Shown here: positions 20,205 to 62,231 of the stretch, piece after piece
Layout: each line of letters starts with the position of its first letter
How positions within the stretch are numbered: position 1 is the stretch's first letter
Origin: Escherichia phage vB_EcoM_E9.1
DNA: 64,000 nucleotides
Sequence record: PP886230
Reading direction: 5' to 3' (one strand)
Program-made: the position numbers and the translations under genes
Notes under the pieces: model-generated
Databases searched by the model: none
What the model was told of the DNA's origin: nothing
The model's input: only the letters and a program-made list of their open reading frames with translations

Positions 20205-20402
20205 ATGCGTATTTTAACTAAAGAACAGCACCACGAAAGACTTATCAATAACATGGCTATGATAATGTATAAGTCCCATGACCATGGTATTGCCTATAAG
20301 CGTGAATTAATTATGGCACTATTCATTGGAACTAACTTTCAGGAAAGGTATGTCAACGATTGGATTTGGTATTTAATTGAAGATATAACGAGTAAACTAT
20401 GA
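20205..20402 (+). CDS. family A paralogue (about 70 aa, LGTNYQE-type motif)
   Basis: Motif FIGTNFQERYV. Confidence 0.65.
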   Translation: MRILTKEQHHERLINNMAMIMYKSHDHGIAYKRELIMALFIGTNFQERYVNDWIWYLIEDITSKL

Positions 20403-20599
20403 AAATGCGTATTTTAAATAAAGAAGAATATCAATCACTGTTACGTAAAAACTTCACAAAGATTTATAATACAGACACACACGTAGAACGAATGGAGTTA
20501 TACCTTTTGATTACTTTGGGAACTAACTATCAGGAAAGATGGGTGATTCAATATATGGATACATTGAAAAATAAAATATTGTCCACGAGGAAACAATGA
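20399..20599 (+). CDS. family A paralogue
   Basis: ATGA overlap; motif TLGTNYQERWV. Confidence 0.65.
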   Translation: MKMRILNKEEYQSLLRKNFTKIYNTDTHVERMELYLLITLGTNYQERWVIQYMDTLKNKILSTRKQ

Positions 20600-20805
20600 A
20601 AACTATAACACGAACCCAATCATACGGTCTTATCTTGAAATACATGGACTTAATGGTGGATATCAGCAAAGACCTTCCTAAAACTGAAATTGAAGTTGCA
20701 AGAGCAGAGATCCGCATGTTGGCTGTACTGAACACAAACCATCAGGAAGAGTATGTTGACGATTGGATTCGATTTTTAATAGAAGATATTAAGAGTAAAC
20801 TATGA
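20596..20805 (+). CDS. family A paralogue
   Basis: ATGA overlap; motif VLNTNHQEEYV. Confidence 0.65.
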   Translation: MKTITRTQSYGLILKYMDLMVDISKDLPKTEIEVARAEIRMLAVLNTNHQEEYVDDWIRFLIEDIKSKL

Positions 20806-21017
20806 TTATTATAGAAAACTCATATCAATATACTGAACGCATCGCTGCCAGACAACTTGAAATCCTCATAATATACGAAGAGACTTCTGATTTAAACTTA
20901 GCCGAGGTATTGGAAAATGATATACTATTGGGTGCATTCTTAGGAACAGACTATCAGAAGTATTATGAGGAAAAGTATTTGTCATCTCTTGAGAAATATA
21001 TCAGGAGCAAATTATGA
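20802..21017 (+). CDS. family A paralogue
   Basis: ATGA overlap; motif FLGTDYQKYYE. Confidence 0.65.
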   Translation: MIIIENSYQYTERIAARQLEILIIYEETSDLNLAEVLENDILLGAFLGTDYQKYYEEKYLSSLEKYIRSKL

Positions 21018-21226
21018 TTTTTTTAACACCAGAAGAATATAAGAAACGTTTCAATTCCGCACAGGGTGAAATCTTACTTATATACCTTTCAAATGCAGAC
21101 CTTAACTTATCAAGGGTATTAGAAAAAGATTTACTTATGGGTGCATTCCTTGATACAGACTTTCAGGTGTATTATGTAGGGGAATACTTAATTGCACTTC
21201 AGAATTATATCAGGAGTAAACTATGA
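21014..21226 (+). CDS. family A paralogue
   Basis: ATGA overlap; motif FLDTDFQVYYV. Confidence 0.65.
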   Translation: MIFLTPEEYKKRFNSAQGEILLIYLSNADLNLSRVLEKDLLMGAFLDTDFQVYYVGEYLIALQNYIRSKL

Positions 21227-21441
21227 AACATTTAAGTAATTACGAGAAGAATAAAATTATCGTTGCTGCAATAAACAAATATTTTACACTTCCTCACACA
21301 GAAGGTTTATGTGTAAGGGAACACAGGATAAACACCACCGATATACGCATGATGGCTGTACTGGGGACGAACTTTCAGGAAGAGTATGTTGTTGCACACA
21401 TAGTTGCCCTCACTGATCTAATAAGGGACAAATGTAAATGA
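21223..21441 (+). CDS. family A paralogue
   Basis: ATGA overlap; motif VLGTNFQEEYV. Confidence 0.65.
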   Translation: MKHLSNYEKNKIIVAAINKYFTLPHTEGLCVREHRINTTDIRMMAVLGTNFQEEYVVAHIVALTDLIRDKCK

Positions 21442-21695
21442 AACACTTAACTGATGATGAATTTGAAACTATAATTCGTAAACTAACCCCCATCACAAGG
21501 ATAGTCTACGGTGACCCCAGCCTTACATGGAACCAAATGCGAGCTAAAGTTAATGAGCTATGGTTGCTGTACTTTATGGGGACTCAATATCAAGATAAGT
21601 TTTGCACAGAATATATCGAACAATTAACGAATGTTATACAGGATAAACTAGATGATTATTTGCTCACAAAACATGAAGACTTTATCAGGAGTTGA
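21438..21695 (+). CDS. family A paralogue with C-terminal read-through
   Basis: Motif FMGTQYQDKF; the usual KL-stop/ATGA junction is disrupted near 21645. Confidence 0.6.
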   Translation: MKHLTDDEFETIIRKLTPITRIVYGDPSLTWNQMRAKVNELWLLYFMGTQYQDKFCTEYIEQLTNVIQDKLDDYLLTKHEDFIRS

Positions 21696-21924
21696 GTATC
21701 AAACTGCCCTATTCTCTTTAATCCATACCCTTAGAAAAAACAATGCCTTACATGGTGCACCTGAAGTGGATGTTATCAACGGTGAACTTTATCTTATGAA
21801 ATTCATTGGAACAAACTATCAAGATCTGTTCATTCAACGATACTTATCCGCATTAAGAAACCAAATCCAATATAAAACCATCAAGGCCAAAAAAGAATGG
21901 AATAAACAATGCGACAAAGACTAA
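21652..21924 (+). CDS. family A paralogue (start uncertain, 21652 or 21673)
   Basis: Motif FIGTNYQDLFI. Confidence 0.6.
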   Translation: MIICSQNMKTLSGVEYQTALFSLIHTLRKNNALHGAPEVDVINGELYLMKFIGTNYQDLFIQRYLSALRNQIQYKTIKAKKEWNKQCDKD

Positions 21925-22160
21925 ATCACAAAATGTATTGTAAACTATTGCAGACACTGGCACAGAAACACTATGACACTGTATCTGAAATATTACCCTA
22001 TGATATCATGCGTTTAATTCATAGTGAGGCAGAGATGCTTGTACTGATGACAGGCACTGATAAAAAAGCAATTGCCAAATCAATAGATATGTTCATCGAA
22101 GCACAATGTCAACACATTAGAACCGAGATATGGAGACGAGAGAATGATAACACTAAATGA
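21909..22160 (+). CDS. family A paralogue (divergent)
   Basis: Degenerate motif LMTGTDKKAI at the usual position. Confidence 0.5.
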   Translation: MRQRLNHKMYCKLLQTLAQKHYDTVSEILPYDIMRLIHSEAEMLVLMTGTDKKAIAKSIDMFIEAQCQHIRTEIWRRENDNTK

Positions 22161-22359
22161 GTTTCAGTATCATTGGAGGTTACAAACTATCAAATCAAAA
22201 GTGTATAGTATTGTGTTAAACAAATCTATTGCACAAGAGGACAAATGTGTTATAATAGCTGAAATGAAGTTGGGTGCTTTCGTAGGGACAAACTATCAAA
22301 ACATCTACACTGACGTATTGTTAAGTGCCTTACGTAACAAGGTGGTATCCAAAATATGA
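22144..22359 (+). CDS. family A paralogue
   Basis: Motif FVGTNYQNIY. Confidence 0.65.
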   Translation: MITLNEFQYHWRLQTIKSKVYSIVLNKSIAQEDKCVIIAEMKLGAFVGTNYQNIYTDVLLSALRNKVVSKI

Positions 22360-22574
22360 GAAATTTACAAGGCTTTGAATACATCAGACTCCTGAAAACA
22401 TGCACCAGCAGAAGGAAAATCTTATCAAGCGATAAGAGCATCCAAGCTAACTTTAAGCACGCACTAGTAACTGAACTCTATGTAGGTGCACTCTTAGGCA
22501 CAAATTATCAACAAATGTATGTAGATCTATGGATTGACGCTCTACAGAAAGAGGTTAAAAGTAAATGCAAATGA
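22356..22574 (+). CDS. family A paralogue
   Basis: ATGA overlap; motif LLGTNYQQMYV. Confidence 0.65.
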   Translation: MRNLQGFEYIRLLKTCTSRRKILSSDKSIQANFKHALVTELYVGALLGTNYQQMYVDLWIDALQKEVKSKCK

Positions 22575-22783
22575 TTAATTTAAGTAAAGACGAATTTTAT
22601 GTTATACTGGCGAAAACTTATCCAGCACGTAAGGCCGTTTATGATAGTCACATTATTGAACCCTCAAAGAAGTTGATTTTAGTAAATGAGATAAAGATGC
22701 TTTCAGTCTTAGGAACAAACTATCAAGAGAATGCTGTACTGATGTTAATTGATGCCCTCCAGCGAGAGGTTAAACGTAAATGA
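22565..22783 (+). CDS. family A paralogue
   Basis: Motif VLGTNYQENAV. Confidence 0.65.
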   Translation: MQMINLSKDEFYVILAKTYPARKAVYDSHIIEPSKKLILVNEIKMLSVLGTNYQENAVLMLIDALQREVKRK

Positions 22784-23010
22784 AAATGATTAATTTAACT
22801 TACCATGAATATCAAAAACGTTTAAATGCATCCAGAGATATAAGGATTCAAATATTCAATAACAAAAGATTGAAGCCTGATATCAGGAAAATCAAAATCA
22901 TAGAAGCCGTGTTGTGCAACTTCCTAGGGACTAACTATCAGGAAGGTAAGGTAGAAAACTATCTTATAGAACTCATGAATAGTATTGAAAATAAATGTAA
23001 GGGTAATTAA
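22780..23010 (+). CDS. family A paralogue
   Basis: ATGA overlap; motif FLGTNYQEGKV; C-terminus runs into the duplicated 38-bp segment. Confidence 0.65.
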   Translation: MKMINLTYHEYQKRLNASRDIRIQIFNNKRLKPDIRKIKIIEAVLCNFLGTNYQEGKVENYLIELMNSIENKCKGN

Positions 23011-23011
23011 C

Positions 23012-23251
23012 ATGAAAATGATTAAATTATCTCAAGCAAAATATAAAGAACGCCTGGTAAAAATTGCACCTGGACTTAATGAAATCCATCACGGAGAAGT
23101 CATTAAACACGGAAATAAGATGATTATGAAACTTGAGTTAAAGGTGGGTGCATTCATAGGAACAAACTATCAGGAGTATTATGTAGATGAATACATAATC
23201 GCACTTAAGAGATACATTGGAAGAAAACTATATCTACAAACTAAAGAATAG
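23012..23251 (+). CDS. family A paralogue
   Basis: ATG start MKMIKLSQ (track ORF begins at TTG 22985); motif FIGTNYQEYYV. Confidence 0.6.
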   Translation: MKMIKLSQAKYKERLVKIAPGLNEIHHGEVIKHGNKMIMKLELKVGAFIGTNYQEYYVDEYIIALKRYIGRKLYLQTKE

Positions 23252-56414: not shown

Positions 56415-56447
56415 AGGACGGGATTTGTTATCTCGTCCTTTTTTTAT
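56415..56447 (+). terminator. rho-independent terminator
   Basis: Hairpin aggacgggatttgttatctcgtcct then TTTTTTT. Confidence 0.7.
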
Positions 56448-56457
56448 CTGGAGATGT

Positions 56458-57312
56458 ATGAAACTTTATCTAATCGTTGACTACAATAAGGATTATGCTG
56501 GTAACTTCACCGAAGATTCGGATGGATATTGCACATCGACTAATGTCAATGTACGTATCAGTAATGCTCATGAACATGAATCTTGTAAAAATCTAAAAGA
56601 TTTTATCACATACCGAGCATTTGAAAAGAACTTCTGCCGCAGTAGATATTCGAAGTTTGAGTACCCGTTAATTGATGTTCCTGATGATTTAATGTTCCAG
56701 TTAATGCTAACTGGAGTTCAAGATTATGATTACATAGCATATAATCATATTACTAAGAAAATTTATATTGGTACATCATCACATGACACTTCTATGTATG
56801 CATCATGCCCAGATGATCGAATGAATGATAGAAAATCATACTATAGTGGATCAGTTGGTTTAAATGATTCATTAAATGAAAATTTATTCTTTGAGTATGT
56901 TTATGATTACCATCATGAGAAAAAAGAACGTGAAGATTACTGTATAGCAATTGATAGTACTAATGGGTATGAAGACGTGAAAGAAGCACTTATGCCGTAC
57001 ATTATTGAAAAGTACTACAAAGATTTTCAGTACTGTAGTAATTTTCTAATCAGAAATTCTATTATAATCGGTCGCCAATCTAGTGCATACTCTCAGTACT
57101 ATAATGATTCACCAGTAGCATCGGCAAATGAAATGTGTGATATTTTACAAATTCCACGTGAAGATATGGCATTCATTTTTACATCTTTTATTGAAGATGA
57201 TGAGTTGTATATTAAAAATAAACACCGTTTCATGCCAAGCAAGATTGAGGTTATTCGAAGTTTTAGTGTTGATATACTAACAAATTTCACAGAAAAAACC
57301 GAATATAACTGA
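56458..57312 (+). CDS. hypothetical protein (284 aa) with two family-B-like motifs
   Basis: DDLMFQLMLTGVQDYD and ENLFFEYVYDY; ATG after the terminator (track ORF from 56425 overlaps it). Confidence 0.65.
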   Translation: MKLYLIVDYNKDYAGNFTEDSDGYCTSTNVNVRISNAHEHESCKNLKDFITYRAFEKNFCRSRYSKFEYPLIDVPDDLMFQLMLTGVQDYDYIAYNHITKKIYIGTSSHDTSMYASCPDDRMNDRKSYYSGSVGLNDSLNENLFFEYVYDYHHEKKEREDYCIAIDSTNGYEDVKEALMPYIIEKYYKDFQYCSNFLIRNSIIIGRQSSAYSQYYNDSPVASANEMCDILQIPREDMAFIFTSFIEDDELYIKNKHRFMPSKIEVIRSFSVDILTNFTEKTEYN

Positions 57313-57341
57313 GACAAATGATAAGTTAATGATATAATATA

Positions 57342-57377
57342 AGGTGACAACATAATATGTTAGTCACCTTTTTTTAA
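57342..57377 (+). terminator. rho-independent terminator
   Basis: Hairpin aggtgacaacataatatgttagtcacct then TTTTTTT. Confidence 0.7.
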
Positions 57378-57990
57378 TCCTGAAAGGTTCCCATAAGGAA
57401 ATGATTAAAAGCCTAATCCACTCGAAAATGTAGAGGGTAGATGAGTAGTCCTTTCAGTACGAACAGCAGATGAAACCCGTTAGATGATGGCATAGTTTGA
57501 ACCACTCACGGCAATGCGGCTGTATAAAGAACTCCAATAGGATAAAGAGAGTTCCTCGATAGACATATAAGGATCGCACCTTACCAATTATCTAAGGGAG
57601 ATTTCATAAGAAATATGCGGTCGGAATTATACAATATAGTTGCGTCCAAATTTTGTGAAATCAAATACAAGTACTGGTCATATGGTATTTGTATTATGTG
57701 TCGGGATGTTTAAGACCGACGACCGTTGCTACAAGAACCGCGATAGAGAGAAACAGAGCAACCCGCTTTCGTCTCGTAAGAGAATTCGTGATATGAACTA
57801 TGTGAAGGCCACCAGCGTCAAACTTTTTTGTTCTTTCCCCTGCGGGGGGATGAAATATGCTCAAGCAAACCCCGTCAATATTAATTAAAAGAAAATAGTA
57901 CTTGTAGAATTAGACATGCGTAGCATGGTAATTCTACTGATGTTGATGAAATCAACGTCACGTATATTCATTGATGTTTCCATAGGAATA

Positions 57991-58536
57991 ATGATGGCAT
58001 TTATTAGAAAACAAAAAACTTTTACCTATAAGACTTTGGATTTTGTTGATTGTGAAAACCAATTACAAGATGAAGATAACTTTACAGGATTTGTTGTTAT
58101 TAAAGAAAAAGGATGCATTTCTTACATAAAGGAATTACAGAACGGCATTGAAGTTACTTCAGTCAAATTACTTCCTACACAAAAACCAACAATATTAAAA
58201 GCACAGTATGGTAATTATTTCGAGGAAAGATATAGTAATAATTTAATAAGTGTTAAGGCTTATATTATAAAAGGAGAACTAGAAGGAGAATATAGAAAAT
58301 ACAACCCACAAGGAAAATGTGTTTGGGTTAAATACTTCAATTCAGGAAATGATGTAACATCTGAAATAATTGAGTTTTTAGGTTTAACATGTACCCCTGA
58401 AACTCTTCATGATTACAAATTTAATACTGAAGAAGAGTTTAATCTGATGATGCGTTATGGTTCACATTTTAAATTTTTGTATGAATATAACATTGACAGT
58501 AGTACTTTTGATAAGATAGTACAGAACTGTCTATAA
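57991..58536 (+). CDS. hypothetical protein (start uncertain: 57916, 57991 or 57994)
   Basis: ORF; SD aggaa before the ATGATG pair at 57991. Confidence 0.55.
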   Translation: MMAFIRKQKTFTYKTLDFVDCENQLQDEDNFTGFVVIKEKGCISYIKELQNGIEVTSVKLLPTQKPTILKAQYGNYFEERYSNNLISVKAYIIKGELEGEYRKYNPQGKCVWVKYFNSGNDVTSEIIEFLGLTCTPETLHDYKFNTEEEFNLMMRYGSHFKFLYEYNIDSSTFDKIVQNCL

Positions 58537-58552
58537 CAAAAGGATTTATAAC

Positions 58553-59074
58553 ATGTCGAAGAAGGATACTTCGAACAAACATTCAGTACACTTCAGTACT
58601 GGTAAAGATAACTGGACAACTCCAAAAGATTTCTTTGAAGAGTTAGATGAGTTATGGGGATTTACGCTTGATGCTGCTTGTGTTGATGAGACTGCATTAT
58701 GTGAGAATTATTTTACACCAAATGATGATTCTCTTTCACAGGATTGGGGAAAGAATATAGTTTGGTTGAACCCTCCATATAGTGATTTGAAAACATGGTT
58801 ATCTAAAGCAGTAGATGCGTATAATAAAGGGGCAACTGTATTAATTCTTGTACCATCAAGAACGGATACTATAGCTTTTCAGGATTATGCTGCGAAAGTT
58901 TGTGATTGTATTTGTTTTATTAAGGGAAGGTTACGATTTGGTATCCCAGAAGAACCAGAGAAGAAAACAGATTCAGCACCATTTCCTTCGTGTCTGATAG
59001 TACTAGATAAGTACTTAACCACTGCTAAAATCAATTATCTTAAATCTCTTGGATTGGTGATGAAGAATTTATGA
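58553..59074 (+). CDS. phage Dam-type DNA N6-adenine methyltransferase
   Basis: N-terminal W-TP..FF..LD..WGFTLDAA and catalytic NPPY motif. Confidence 0.8.
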   Translation: MSKKDTSNKHSVHFSTGKDNWTTPKDFFEELDELWGFTLDAACVDETALCENYFTPNDDSLSQDWGKNIVWLNPPYSDLKTWLSKAVDAYNKGATVLILVPSRTDTIAFQDYAAKVCDCICFIKGRLRFGIPEEPEKKTDSAPFPSCLIVLDKYLTTAKINYLKSLGLVMKNL

Positions 59075-59604
59075 AAGAAACATGTATATTATCATTTATG
59101 AGATGTAACCCAGTCCACAATGGTCATGGTTTAGTTTTTGAAAAGGCCAAAACATTACAAGAACAGTACAATGCAGATTTGAAAATATATCTAAGCACCA
59201 GTACTGATAATATAAAAAACCCGCTTCCTCCTGAATTAAAGATGTATTACACTGAGGGTTTCTATCCTTCGGTTCAAGAAAACATTTATACTGAAGATAA
59301 TCTTTTTGATATAATGCGTGAATTAGATGGAAAATATTTAGATGTATTTTTTATATGTGGTTCAGACCGTATTGATTCTTTTCAGAAAACACTTGACAGT
59401 TACAATGGGAAGTTGTATAATTTTTGTAATATAAAAGCAATTCAAGCAGGTATTGACCGCCAATCAAGTCAATATAGCTCAACACAAATGCGTAACTTCG
59501 CAAAAAATGAAGATTTTGATAGTTTTCGTGAGTTTTTACCTGGAAATGACGAGGACTTAAAAATACAATTATTTGAAGACGTTATAAAATACATGAGGAA
59601 ATAA
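59071..59604 (+). CDS. nucleotidyltransferase-like protein with HxGH motif (possible NMN/NaMN adenylyltransferase-like)
   Basis: N-terminal SFMRCNPVHNGH resembles the FDP.H.GH motif of cytidylyltransferase-fold enzymes; ATGA overlap with the methyltransferase gene. Confidence 0.45.
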   Translation: MKETCILSFMRCNPVHNGHGLVFEKAKTLQEQYNADLKIYLSTSTDNIKNPLPPELKMYYTEGFYPSVQENIYTEDNLFDIMRELDGKYLDVFFICGSDRIDSFQKTLDSYNGKLYNFCNIKAIQAGIDRQSSQYSSTQMRNFAKNEDFDSFREFLPGNDEDLKIQLFEDVIKYMRK

Positions 59605-59606
59605 TT

Positions 59607-59900
59607 ATGTCAGTACTGTTCAAAACCAATCCAGTACTTTGGGATCAAAATGAGCAATCAGGATTTCGTTCCATCCATGTTGAATACAAAGGTAATACTG
59701 TAGTTGCAATTATTGCTAACAAAACTCTAGGAAACTGGACTGCACAGGTTGTTCCTATGGGATATTCTTACACATCTGATGAGGTTCAATTCCTGGCTGA
59801 ACTATATCGTCAAGTGCCGTTTATCATTAATGTACTAGAAGGTAATGATACATTATCACATGCAGATGTGATTAATTTTCTTGGAAACTTGCATGTGTGA
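59607..59900 (+). CDS. hypothetical protein
   Basis: ORF 97 aa directly downstream. Confidence 0.6.
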   Translation: MSVLFKTNPVLWDQNEQSGFRSIHVEYKGNTVVAIIANKTLGNWTAQVVPMGYSYTSDEVQFLAELYRQVPFIINVLEGNDTLSHADVINFLGNLHV

Positions 59901-60180
59901 TGAAATAAATCTTACAGGATATTTTTTACAAGAATCAATGATTAAATTTAGTGATAAATTTTCAGTACTGGATGGTATCGAAATGTGGCATGTCAAACCA
60001 CTGTTCCACACTTTCAGTAAAGAGCACAAAATGTTATTGACTGAAGCCAGTAAATCAAATAACATATGTGAAATCAAAATTGGTGTAAATGTCTATAAAG
60101 GGATGGTTATCTTTTTTGACAATAACAGCAACTACTTTTATATTGTTAAGGAGCATTACGTTGACAAATACAAATACTAA
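59881..60180 (+). CDS. hypothetical protein
   Basis: ORF 99 aa. Confidence 0.55.
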   Translation: METCMCDEINLTGYFLQESMIKFSDKFSVLDGIEMWHVKPLFHTFSKEHKMLLTEASKSNNICEIKIGVNVYKGMVIFFDNNSNYFYIVKEHYVDKYKY

Positions 60181-60775
60181 TACATACTTCCGTTATCTTC
60201 GCTTAGGTCTTTCCCTACGTCCGATCCGTGGAAAGTGCGATTCACTCGCTGACCTTGACTATGCATATGCATTACATCATGAAGGTGTACAGTATGTATT
60301 GGGTGATTATGGTGAATTTGAAGAAACAAATGACAGTACTGGAATTAATGCTGGTGTAGAAAATCTTAACAACATTGCTAACAGTTCTCGCCATGACATT
60401 GTGTTACAGATTCAAAACTTTATTGAGCAACACACAGGCAAACGTGTTTGGTGCTATGTCGGTACTGATGCACAAATGTCAATTTCATTCGGTAACGATG
60501 AAGGATATGTTGCACAGCTTATTATGGATTTTGAATCTGAAGAGAAGTTTTTAGAATTCAAAGAAAAGATTATTCAGTCACTTGTTGATATGGGTATCCC
60601 CGAAGATAAAATGCCAGAAGTCCAAAACATTGATGAATTTGTTTTGATTCCATCTGATGAGAAATATGATGCAATGTTTACTGCTCTTAATATTCCAGGA
60701 GTTATTGTGGAGTACTTTGATGATGGTGATGATAGTATCTATATCGATCTAGATGACGATGACGACGATGAATAA
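60161..60775 (+). CDS. hypothetical protein with poly-Asp C-terminus
   Basis: TTG start 7 nt after SD aaggag (track ORF from 60089 overlaps upstream gene); C-terminus DLDDDDDDE. Confidence 0.6.
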   Translation: MTNTNTNTYFRYLRLGLSLRPIRGKCDSLADLDYAYALHHEGVQYVLGDYGEFEETNDSTGINAGVENLNNIANSSRHDIVLQIQNFIEQHTGKRVWCYVGTDAQMSISFGNDEGYVAQLIMDFESEEKFLEFKEKIIQSLVDMGIPEDKMPEVQNIDEFVLIPSDEKYDAMFTALNIPGVIVEYFDDGDDSIYIDLDDDDDDE

Positions 60776-60780
60776 TGTAC

Positions 60781-60810
60781 ATAGCCCGACATAAGTTCGG
60801 GCTATTTTTG
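60781..60810 (+). terminator. rho-independent terminator
   Basis: Hairpin atagcccgacataagttcgggctat then TTTTTG. Confidence 0.7.
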
Positions 60811-60821
60811 TAAGGGGATAT

Positions 60822-61097
60822 ATGAATTATAAAGTTCTACAATATACATACAGTGTTTTGTTTGATTTACATCACAATGGAAGATATCTCAATACAATAC
60901 GAGAAAACACATTCACTCATACTATCTGGATTAATCACTTAATAATGATACGTGAATATTTTGTTAATAGTGAGATAATCATTCGTGGTAAAAAACAGAA
61001 GATAGAACAAGTTAATAGTTTTGGTGGTAAATTAGTACTATCATTTATAGATAGTAATACTAATGAAAGATATAGTATAGATTTGGTGGACATATGA
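60822..61097 (+). CDS. family C paralogue (90-100 aa, N-terminal TYK-LYDL motif)
   Basis: N-terminus MNYKVLQYTYSVLFDLHHNG; SD aagggga. Confidence 0.6.
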   Translation: MNYKVLQYTYSVLFDLHHNGRYLNTIRENTFTHTIWINHLIMIREYFVNSEIIIRGKKQKIEQVNSFGGKLVLSFIDSNTNERYSIDLVDI

Positions 61098-61360
61098 ATT
61101 ATAAAGATTTCCTACTAACATACAAGATTATTCGAGATTTAGCACACGACAATGATAGCCCTAGTCTAGAAGACACATGCACTGAAATGATTCATACGAT
61201 TCGTGGTAAGATTAAAAAAAAATTCAGTACTGTTATTATTGGTGATGACCATGCAGAATTTTCTGATATAATCATTAGACGTGATGGTAAAGTTGAGGTT
61301 CAGTACTACACTGATTTTGGATTTACCAGTATTCCGTTGGAGATATTCCCTTGGGATTAA
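61094..61360 (+). CDS. family C paralogue
   Basis: N-terminus MNYKDFLLTYKIIRDL; ATGA overlap. Confidence 0.6.
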   Translation: MNYKDFLLTYKIIRDLAHDNDSPSLEDTCTEMIHTIRGKIKKKFSTVIIGDDHAEFSDIIIRRDGKVEVQYYTDFGFTSIPLEIFPWD

Positions 61361-61662
61361 ATTTAAATGATATACAATTCACTTATAAGATCCTATATGA
61401 TTTGTATGATGTATACCTTGTTAGTAACAACATAGGTTCACATAACCCATACAAAGAACAACCATTTATTGATTTATATATTGAGTACTTAGATTCAGTA
61501 GGTGAATATATAAAAAAGAATTACAGTACTTTTATCGATGGAAATGATATATTCGAGTTCTCTGGAGTTAAATCATACAATGGGATTATCCATGTTGAAT
61601 TTCTTGAAATAACCGATAGGGGATTTATCGAGATTAAAGTTGTGAAGTTGGTGAATTTATAA
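61351..61662 (+). CDS. family C paralogue
   Basis: N-terminus ..NDIQFTYKILYDLYDV. Confidence 0.6.
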   Translation: MGLNLNDIQFTYKILYDLYDVYLVSNNIGSHNPYKEQPFIDLYIEYLDSVGEYIKKNYSTFIDGNDIFEFSGVKSYNGIIHVEFLEITDRGFIEIKVVKLVNL

Positions 61663-61672
61663 GAGGTTACAT

Positions 61673-61984
61673 ATGTTATTAAATGATATACAATTCACAT
61701 ACAAATTTTTGTATATCCAATACGCTACGGTTGATGCTGGAGAATATCTCTACAGTGAAATCTATCGTTCGGTATGGATAAAGTTTTTGGATGAATTACA
61801 TGAATATTACCATGATTTGTGTATAGTTCGTGATAATAAAATATACAAATTTCGCGATATTGTTAGTCATAGCGGTAAGCTACGATTGGAATTAAGTACT
61901 GATAGTGATGTTGATTGGATTGGTGTAAATTTACTGGAATTGAAGAATGAAAAACAACTTAAAGGAAATACAAGTATTTTATAA
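61673..61984 (+). CDS. family C paralogue
   Basis: N-terminus MLLNDIQFTYKFLYIQY. Confidence 0.6.
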   Translation: MLLNDIQFTYKFLYIQYATVDAGEYLYSEIYRSVWIKFLDELHEYYHDLCIVRDNKIYKFRDIVSHSGKLRLELSTDSDVDWIGVNLLELKNEKQLKGNTSIL

Positions 61985-62231
61985 ATTCTTATACTTATCA
62001 TATGTAAAAGATGAGTACTATGAAAGTGTATATTATTTTTTATGGCAACATTACCGTACTATAGTAAGAGATTTATATATAGGAAAATCTATCATATCCA
62101 ATGGTGAAAAATGTATCTGTACGGATGTAGTTAGTTTTAATGGTTCTTTAACACTGTGTTTCAGATGCGATAATAATAGTGGGTCATTTTCATTAAACGT
62201 ATATCAGTTAGAAGGAATAAATTTTGAATAA
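61947..62231 (+). CDS. family C paralogue
   Basis: N-terminus ..LKEIQVFYKFLYLSY. Confidence 0.55.
   Translation: MKNNLKEIQVFYKFLYLSYVKDEYYESVYYFLWQHYRTIVRDLYIGKSIISNGEKCICTDVVSFNGSLTLCFRCDNNSGSFSLNVYQLEGINFE

Follow-up and report, generated by a model that had tools for sequence, protein, structure and literature searches.

The 64,000-nucleotide stretch of Escherichia phage vB_EcoM_E9.1 analyzed here (record PP886230, referred to as the window) carries at positions 58553-59604 two overlapping open reading frames (ORFs), a Dam-type adenine methyltransferase gene (ORF1) followed by a gene for a small nucleotidyltransferase with a HIGH signature (ORF2). A first-pass annotation made from the letters alone had called these two families, and had gone on to suggest that ORF2 might be an adenylyltransferase of nicotinamide or nicotinic acid mononucleotide (NMN/NaMN) and that the pair could be a DNA modification module or part of a nicotinamide adenine dinucleotide (NAD)-related counter-defense function. 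Our analysis indicates that the family-level readings of both genes are right, while the ideas of an NMN adenylyltransferase (NMNAT), a modification module and NAD counter-defense are unsupported. The locus is made up as follows.

58540..58544, + strand: Shine-Dalgarno-like AAGGA, 8 nt 5' of the ORF1 start codon, read from the sequence
58553..59074, + strand: ORF1, phage Dam-family N6-adenine DNA methyltransferase, 173 amino acids (PF05869, phrog_111)
58769..58780, + strand: NPPY codons, catalytic motif IV, residues 73-76, read from the translation
59071..59074, + strand: ATGA stop/start overlap of ORF1 and ORF2, read from the sequence
59071..59604, + strand: ORF2, stand-alone HIGH-signature nucleotidyltransferase of the phage 'cytitidyltransferase' family, 177 amino acids
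59116..59127, + strand: HNGH codons, (H/T)xGH motif, residues 16-19, read from the translation
59476..59493, + strand: SSTQMR codons, second nucleotide-binding signature (ISxxxxR type / SxTxxR), residues 136-141

Over 57900-60800, identity to Escherichia phage UB (Asteriusvirus) amounts to 99.8%, and about 20 other Asteriusvirus jumbo phages, including PBECO4, 121Q, JP4 and Sharanji, reach 94-99%. In UB, both ORFs have the same coordinates and are labeled 'DNA methyltransferase' (AXC36936.1) and 'putative cytitidyltransferase' (AXC36935.1), and phage JP4 bears the same two labels on the gene pair. With these labels present in about 30 deposited Asteriusvirus genomes, the pair is already annotated, and by itself it adds little beyond public records. 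ORF2 is not discussed in the Asteriusvirus genome papers. Its orthologues in 121Q (KM507819 gene 418), 7t3 (7t3_0248), fEgEco12 (Gp163) and Ecwhy_1 are labeled 'ribonucleotide reductase A', a name also common to cyanophage metaG-MbCM1, and this label appears to be a propagated error.

The call of a Dam-type adenine methyltransferase for ORF1 is borne out by its NPPY motif and by a match to Pfam PF05869 'Dam' (E 5.9e-32, 111.1 bits against a gathering cut-off of 28.1) that spans profile positions 7-149 of 169. The match to phrog_111 has an E-value of 6.3e-57, and 7t3, RCIP0023, Kaldavass and XaC1 all have orthologues that retain NPPY. Against TIGR01712 'phage N-6-adenine-methyltransferase' the score of 93.1 bits lies about 4 below the equivalog cut-off of 97.05. 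On these profile matches the family membership of ORF1 can be taken as safe, while equivalent function is not certified by the near miss. A phmmer search of ORF1 against PDB sequences gave no meaningful match.

Relatives of ORF1 occur in 2161 phage records (tblastn); those in T1-like and Stx phages share 26-36% identity with it. The orphan Dam enzymes of T1, HP1 and VT2 (Stx phage) resemble ORF1 in their single domain of about 170 amino acids, in NPPY and in having no cognate endonuclease adjoining; no endonuclease gene is annotated beside ORF1. Differences are that ORF1 falls below the TIGR01712 cut-off and that it sits in the genome of a 350-kb jumbo phage. ORF1 thus reads as an ordinary orphan single-domain phage Dam-type enzyme, which would use NPPY to transfer a methyl group from S-adenosylmethionine to the N6 position of adenine in phage DNA. 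The characterized PF05869 enzymes (T1, HP1 and VT2 Dam) methylate GATC, and by analogy with them GATC is most likely the target of ORF1, with restriction protection or mimicry of the host Dam as the most likely purpose. GATC is mildly depleted here, at 0.55 of the Markov expectation. Non-specific adenine methylases of the Hia5/M.EcoGII type were considered as relatives of ORF1 and dropped, as they represent a different family; Hia5 is described with DPPY, FxGxG and a large target-recognition region (PMC3299994).

The HxGH nucleotidyltransferase-like call for ORF2 likewise holds. Its N-terminal signature reads CNPVHNGH, the second signature is SSTQMR, and the profile search placed it in two PHROG families named 'cytidyltransferase' (phrog_3041, E 1.2e-55; phrog_395, 3.2e-23), while the NMNAT cut-offs were missed. 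The family matches of ORF1 and ORF2 both lie well outside what chance would give. The match to Pfam PF01467 CTP_transf_like is weak (E 0.015, 15.9 bits, below the gathering threshold of 21), and the same profile is matched at E <= 1e-4 by 28 of 68 long relatives. An AlphaFold2 model built on ten homologues (predicted local distance difference test score, pLDDT, 84.5) displays alternating strands and helices, with a strand at residues 4-10 followed by a helix at 17-32, and HNGH comes after this first strand. The modeled fold is the Rossmann-like HIGH-nucleotidyltransferase fold common to phosphopantetheine adenylyltransferase (PPAT), NMNAT and GCT. Compared with the predicted viral structures of BFVD, the model reaches template-modeling (TM) scores of 0.84-0.88 to cyanophage members (S-PM2, P-TIM68, S-RIM2), as opposed to about 0.6 for PPAT and NMNAT structures in the PDB, where PPAT is the best solved-structure match. 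Judged by this model, the cyanophage 'cytitidyltransferases' are the real family of ORF2. Searches of PDB sequences with phmmer or with a profile of close homologues returned nothing meaningful for ORF2.

A word-indexed homologue search recovered close jumbo-phage relatives only. An exhaustive hidden Markov model search delineated 3694 representatives at 50% identity, with E-values below 1e-10 for 2445. By tblastn, the family is present in phage records of Synechococcus (375), 'Cyanophage' (59) and Prochlorococcus (22), as well as in Rak2-like jumbo phages, Pseudomonas phage Paride and Methylophilales phage Melnitz. The transferase domain is N-terminal in 161 of 168 retrieved proteins (150 listed representatives plus close ORF2 homologues), and most of these proteins measure 300-1200 amino acids. 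The cyanomyovirus members (PHROG 3041/395; S-PM2, P-HM2, S-RIM2, S-SZBM1_140) share the same domain with ORF2 at 24-37% identity by tblastn. Cyanophage and environmental members usually measure 300-1200 amino acids, bear C-terminal extensions (DUF5824, Arg/Lys-rich helices, P-loop kinases) and have DUF6267 as neighbor or fusion partner, whereas ORF2 is the bare 177-amino-acid domain. When 113 long relatives were compared by BLASTP with all window ORFs, ORF2 was the sole match, indicating that the window lacks a gene for a C-terminal partner domain.

The family consensus reads GR[MF]NPPTxGH ... SxSxDxxKNPL...K ... GSDR ... YNG ... SAGxR ... SASKMR, with R11, P14, G18, H19, K57, G97, D99, R100, Y111, N112, R130, S136 and R141 invariant or nearly so; ORF2 and the cyanomyovirus members share these residues. 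None of 150 family domains departs from H19, S136 or R141, and 97% of them retain G18. At position 16, T is found in 80% and H in 15%; ORF2 and its orthologues in jumbo phages belong to the HxGH minority, most members having TxGH. For the cyanophage homologue, function has been said to 'remain[s] unclear', and the S-SZBM1 homologue was found in the virion proteome together with the gene product numbered just before it (PMC9146016). The substrate of the transferase family, if found, would explain a gene of very abundant marine viruses, namely the Synechococcus and Prochlorococcus phages.

Profile comparisons allow for a closer look at the enzyme class. A 39-member family profile aligned with PDB sequences of PPAT (1.7e-5, Helicobacter, nearly end to end), TmcAL-like MJ0951 (3e-5), NadD (1e-3), and NadR and archaeal NMNAT (3e-3). 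Scanned singly, the 39 members gave weak NCBIfam matches to generic adenylyl/cytidylyltransferase (28), NadD-type (17), NadR-type (12), archaeal NMNAT (8), PPAT (7) and flavin adenine dinucleotide (FAD) synthetase (5) models, all far below the cut-offs. The TmcAL/CitC-type acetate-adenylating HIGH enzymes (PF05636) differ in having about 400 amino acids and an RNA-binding C-terminal domain, and their match to the ORF2 family is limited to the two signature motifs. These scores place the family roughly equally distant from PPAT, NMNAT and FAD synthetase, and it belongs to none of them.

By analogy with its nearest characterized relatives, ORF2 would bind a nucleoside triphosphate through HNGH and SSTQMR and move the nucleoside monophosphate onto an acceptor that may well bear a phosphate, with release of pyrophosphate. 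The nucleotide is probably ATP rather than CTP, because PPAT, NMNAT and flavin mononucleotide adenylyltransferase are all adenylyltransferases. The 'cytidyltransferase' label is then probably a misnomer that merely echoes the Pfam domain name. The value of the finding is hence corrective, with 'cytidyltransferase' probably a misnomer and 'ribonucleotide reductase A' wrong.

The relationship between the two genes can be judged from their distribution. Orthologous pairs are present in Salmonella phage 7t3 (66% identity for ORF1 and 51% for ORF2), Klebsiella phage RCIP0023 (63% and 57%) and Erwinia phage Kaldavass (43% and 38%), with a junction that changes from an 8-nt overlap in 7t3 to ATGA in RCIP0023 and a 3-nt gap in Kaldavass. 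In Xanthomonas phage XaC1 the pair is split by four genes. Among the phages examined, adjacency of the pair is confined to Rak2-like jumbo phages: no methylase adjoins the transferase in cyanophage S-SSM4, Paride or Melnitz, and none lies within 6 kb of it in 80 of 80 environmental viral loci, a sample of related marine viruses and biased towards them. The overlap of the two ORFs at 59071-59074, on which translational coupling had been proposed, is real and unremarkable, since 34 ATGA junctions link ORFs of 60 codons or more on the + strand of the 64-kb window; the overlap is therefore uninformative on function. The Shine-Dalgarno duplex of ORF1 with the 16S 3' end amounts to -5.4 kcal/mol, and that of ORF2 is average (-5.2 kcal/mol). 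Reinitiation coupling of ORF2 to ORF1 is plausible and would say nothing on function.

This behavior of the linkage can be best explained by shared ancestry and co-transcription. We therefore favor, with moderate confidence, a reading in which ORF1 and ORF2 are unexceptional members of the early region of a jumbo coliphage (Asteriusvirus, Rak2-like), an ordinary Dam-type methylase and a HIGH nucleotidyltransferase of a large phage-specific family, adjacent by inheritance and probably co-transcribed, with no dedicated two-enzyme system. Several points weigh against it. The two genes have stayed adjacent all the way from Escherichia phages to those of Erwinia, despite protein divergence to 38-43% identity; this could reflect selection and not just synteny. 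The Shine-Dalgarno sequence of ORF2 is no better than average, so that its translation may depend on ORF1. The GATC specificity leans on relatives at 26-36% identity to ORF1, and for ORF2 'generic adenylyltransferase' is a weak mechanistic statement.

The alternative raised at the outset is that ORF2 represents a divergent NMN/NaMN adenylyltransferase which replenishes or rebuilds NAD+ in the infected cell, perhaps to counter NAD-depleting defenses. Its N-terminal GRxNPxHxGH and KNPL loop do resemble archaeal/NadM/NadR-type NMNATs, ORF2 itself has weak NadD matches, and the NMNAT-type NCBIfam models gather the largest number of weak matches over the 39 members (17, 12 and 8). The C-terminal P-loop kinase on 4 of 68 long relatives recalls NadR, which combines an NMNAT with a riboside kinase. 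However, these kinases are of the Zeta-toxin/AAA_33 type and not of the NadR kinase type, TxGH in 80% of the family is a PPAT-type signature, and PPAT matches as well as or better than NMNAT. Against the curated NMNAT models (TIGR00482, NF000840, TIGR01526/7) ORF2 scores 18.7 where 112.45 is needed and 19.2 where 150 is needed, 6-8 times below. It differs from NMNATs as a whole (NadD, NadR, archaeal/NadM, phage NMNAT-Nudix) in these scores and in having no Nudix domain. The family also has an invariant YNG in the helix after the GSDR motif, at the place where NMNATs have their nicotinamide-stacking Trp/Tyr.

Gene content agrees with this distance from NMNATs. The full 670-gene annotation table of the related Asteriusvirus fEgEco12 holds no entry with 'nicotinamide', 'nicotinate' or 'adenylyltransferase', and no Nampt, Nudix or other NAD-salvage gene is annotated there, so that the known phage NAD route (Nampt with NMNAT/Nudix) is without an annotated partner in that phage. 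No Nampt, Nudix or phosphoribosyl pyrophosphate-related gene was found in the 43 kb annotated around the JP4 locus. We regard the NMNAT reading as unlikely, the counter-defense role built on it has no backing from the fEgEco12 table, and NAD salvage by ORF2 is not to be propagated without an assay.

A different possibility follows from the partners of the transferase, among them DUF6267.

Analysis loci L006 2830-3753, L008 2332-3579 and L009 1-1052, and 59 of the loci L010-L089: DUF6267

This domain (PF19782, E 1e-105, about 410 amino acids) is encoded directly upstream on the same strand in 59 of the 80 environmental loci, a fraction that partly reflects shared ancestry because the loci come from related marine viruses. 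It adjoins the transferase in S-SSM4 and Melnitz and lies 3.5 kb upstream of it in jumbo phage XaC1. In phrog_455 the N-terminal half is DUF6267 and the C-terminal half is the transferase domain, indicating that the two are fused in some phages. Other fusion partners of the transferase are DUF5824, in 17 of 68 long relatives, and P-loop kinases of the Zeta-toxin/AAA_33 type, in 4 of the 68. The literature yielded no account of 'cytitidyltransferase', DUF5824 or DUF6267. DUF6267 has invariant KWDG, QGD and EGxV...K blocks, which we read as being arranged like motifs I, III, IV and V of ligases and capping enzymes.

From this partnership, one could place ORF2 in a nucleic-acid- or ligase-associated system. 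The ORF2 family would work with a possibly ligase-like DUF6267 in most phages, supplying or regenerating a nucleotide cofactor or modifying a nucleic-acid end, and the copy in Asteriusvirus would be a reduced relic with a different partner. The Arg/Lys-rich helical tails of long relatives, their occasional polynucleotide-kinase-like P-loop domains and the detection of the S-SZBM1 homologue and its upstream neighbor in virions (PMC9146016) point in the same direction as the gene neighborhoods, the phrog_455 fusion and the motif order. Yet DUF6267 has no match in the window at E <= 10, and none in any Escherichia, Klebsiella, Salmonella or Erwinia phage record of the collection. The ligase resemblance failed as well: DUF6267 profiles gave no PDB profile matches to ligases, and hhalign returned a probability of 0.2% against the DNA and RNA ligases of the phage. 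Together with the shared ancestry behind the 59 loci, this makes such a role of ORF2 distinctly unlikely. The 295-amino-acid protein encoded upstream at 56425-57312, which occupies the position of XaC1_102, was tried as a diverged DUF6267 and rejected (BLASTP E 0.034 over 55 residues).

ORF2 as a phage PPAT (CoaD-like) that boosts coenzyme A (CoA) synthesis or caps with dephospho-CoA is highly unlikely, even though PPAT is the closest in some respects. The two are similar in size, and almost the whole family profile can be aligned to Helicobacter PPAT (E 1.7e-5), with the KNP loop and the C-terminal SxSxxR motif both covered. TxGH in the family consensus and its C-terminal SxSxxR...FLP also resemble PPAT, the latter in comparison with the sequence of E. 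coli CoaD. In contrast, TIGR01510, the model for PPAT, does not match ORF2 at E <= 0.1 and picks up just 7 of 39 relatives, all weakly. No other CoA-pathway gene was noticed in the neighborhood, and relatives fused to large unrelated domains, one of them in virions, would be unexpected for a housekeeping CoA enzyme.

Joint action of methylase and transferase on phage DNA, for example as a two-step adenine or GTAC-site modification, is barely credible: the ATGA overlap with an unremarkable ORF2 Shine-Dalgarno, the adjacency conserved across Escherichia, Salmonella, Klebsiella and Erwinia jumbo phages and the AGTACT enrichment described below would fit it, but the varying junction, the four intervening genes in XaC1, the missing linkage elsewhere in the family and the commonness of ATGA junctions all argue against a module. 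Moreover, fEgEco12 DNA is cut as predicted by ten restriction enzymes, with no gross hypermodification apparent (PMC13070987).

The first-pass annotation had also speculated that the methylase target relates to abundant GTAC-containing palindromes. Within the window, GTAC occurs 567 times where 363 are expected, and AGTACT 250 times where about 22 are expected from base composition (about 10- to 11-fold), with an extension to CAGTACTG in nearly half of the copies. An AGTACT excess of about 10-fold recurs in all sampled members of the Rak2-like clade, which keeps both genes and whose hosts range from Escherichia to Xanthomonas; it is not seen in a cyanophage or in Paride. The methylase and the AGTACT excess are conserved in the same clade and may be linked, but the recognition of GATC by characterized family members counts against such a link. 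Asteriusvirus genomes encode other methyltransferases too (PMC11895373, PMC12805682). AGTACT is absent from the window at 20-24 kb and 28-32 kb.

The opposite bias is found for GCGC, with no copy in the whole window where about 52 are expected. In about 100 kb sampled from eight other Rak2-like phages with different hosts (analysis loci L003-L005, L009 and L099-L131), the count is again 0, with about 81 expected. The absence of GCGC along with the AGTACT excess suggests a nuclease or binding protein of the phage's own. The window also lacks about 20 GC-rich palindromes of 6 bp.

This clade-wide GCGC ban with AGTACT excess, the substrate of the transferase family, its partnership with DUF6267 and an unannotated structured RNA family are better leads than the gene pair itself. 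The RNA lies upstream of the pair.

57385-57900, + strand: structured RNA, ORF-free, about 500 nt, 650 nt upstream of the pair, from covariation

With 40% GC, the element stands out from the roughly 30% around it, and among Asteriusviruses it is 99-100% identical as compared to about 94% for the flanking genes. Homologues occur only in Rak2-like jumbo phages, in 70 records and 280 places, with 4-5 copies per genome. In IMG/VR, 33 stretches fit a pattern scan; the majority lie on contigs of about 350 kb and the others on contigs of 16-174 kb. The paralogues within 121Q share 70-74% identity, indicating that they are ancient.

In the consensus from an alignment of 13 sequences, 63 pairs form 14 helices, with compensatory changes at 33 of the pairs. 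Paired states fill 95.8% of the alignment cells, falling to 36-49% when the partners are slid, and the covariation score of 0.445 compares with at most 0.109 in controls and was reached by none of 500 shuffles. G-U outnumbers A-C among the pairs by 106 to 7, indicating that the + strand is the one transcribed. Covariation of this kind strongly supports the assignment of 57385-57900 as a structured RNA. Rfam 15 has no match for the RNA or for nine homologues and paralogues, ARAGORN finds no tRNA or tmRNA, and the element is unannotated in every record examined.

Rak2-like phages thus hold the bare transferase domain in a conserved block with the Dam-like methylase and, about 650 nt upstream, the structured RNA. 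We hypothesize that the transferase family is a new adenylyltransferase class whose members act together with DUF6267, joined in some phages by polynucleotide-kinase-like domains, and whose target is nucleic acid or a novel nucleotide cofactor. The enzyme might perhaps be delivered with the virion, and in Rak2-like phages the upstream structured RNA is conceivably the substrate. We put this forward as speculative and, on balance, doubtful.

The surroundings of the pair are a long same-strand series of small genes without known function. According to the UB and JP4 annotation, genes for an RNA ligase and a polynucleotide kinase follow 7-9 kb downstream of the pair, and a gene for an ATP-dependent DNA ligase about 16 kb downstream. 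A candidate end of the local transcription unit was found as well.

60781..60815, + strand: intrinsic-terminator-like hairpin and T-run, from a consensus scan (9-bp stem, 5 G-C pairs, TTTTTG tail)

This hairpin probably ends the transcription unit that holds ORF1 and ORF2. A perfect sigma-70 consensus lies inside ORF2 at 59393-59421 on the + strand (TTGACA, 17 nt, TATAAT; 12 of 12 matches) and reads towards the next gene at 59607. At 57329-57378 on the + strand, between the gene 56425-57312 and the structured RNA, an extended -10-like TGATATAAT is followed at once by a hairpin and T-run (AAGGTGAC...GTCACCTTTTTTT), a layout that is the same in Salmonella phage 7t3.

Two series of small paralogous genes are also apparent on the + strand. 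At 20205-23251, in an AGTACT-free zone, a tandem array comprises at least 13 paralogous small genes (65-90 amino acids) with the motif GTNYQExYV...AL, spaced about every 210 nt and chained mostly by ATGA overlaps. The second series, at 60822-62231 directly downstream of the terminator that follows the pair, consists of small paralogous ORFs (88-103 amino acids) with N-terminal (I/L)QFTYK(I/F)LY-like motifs.

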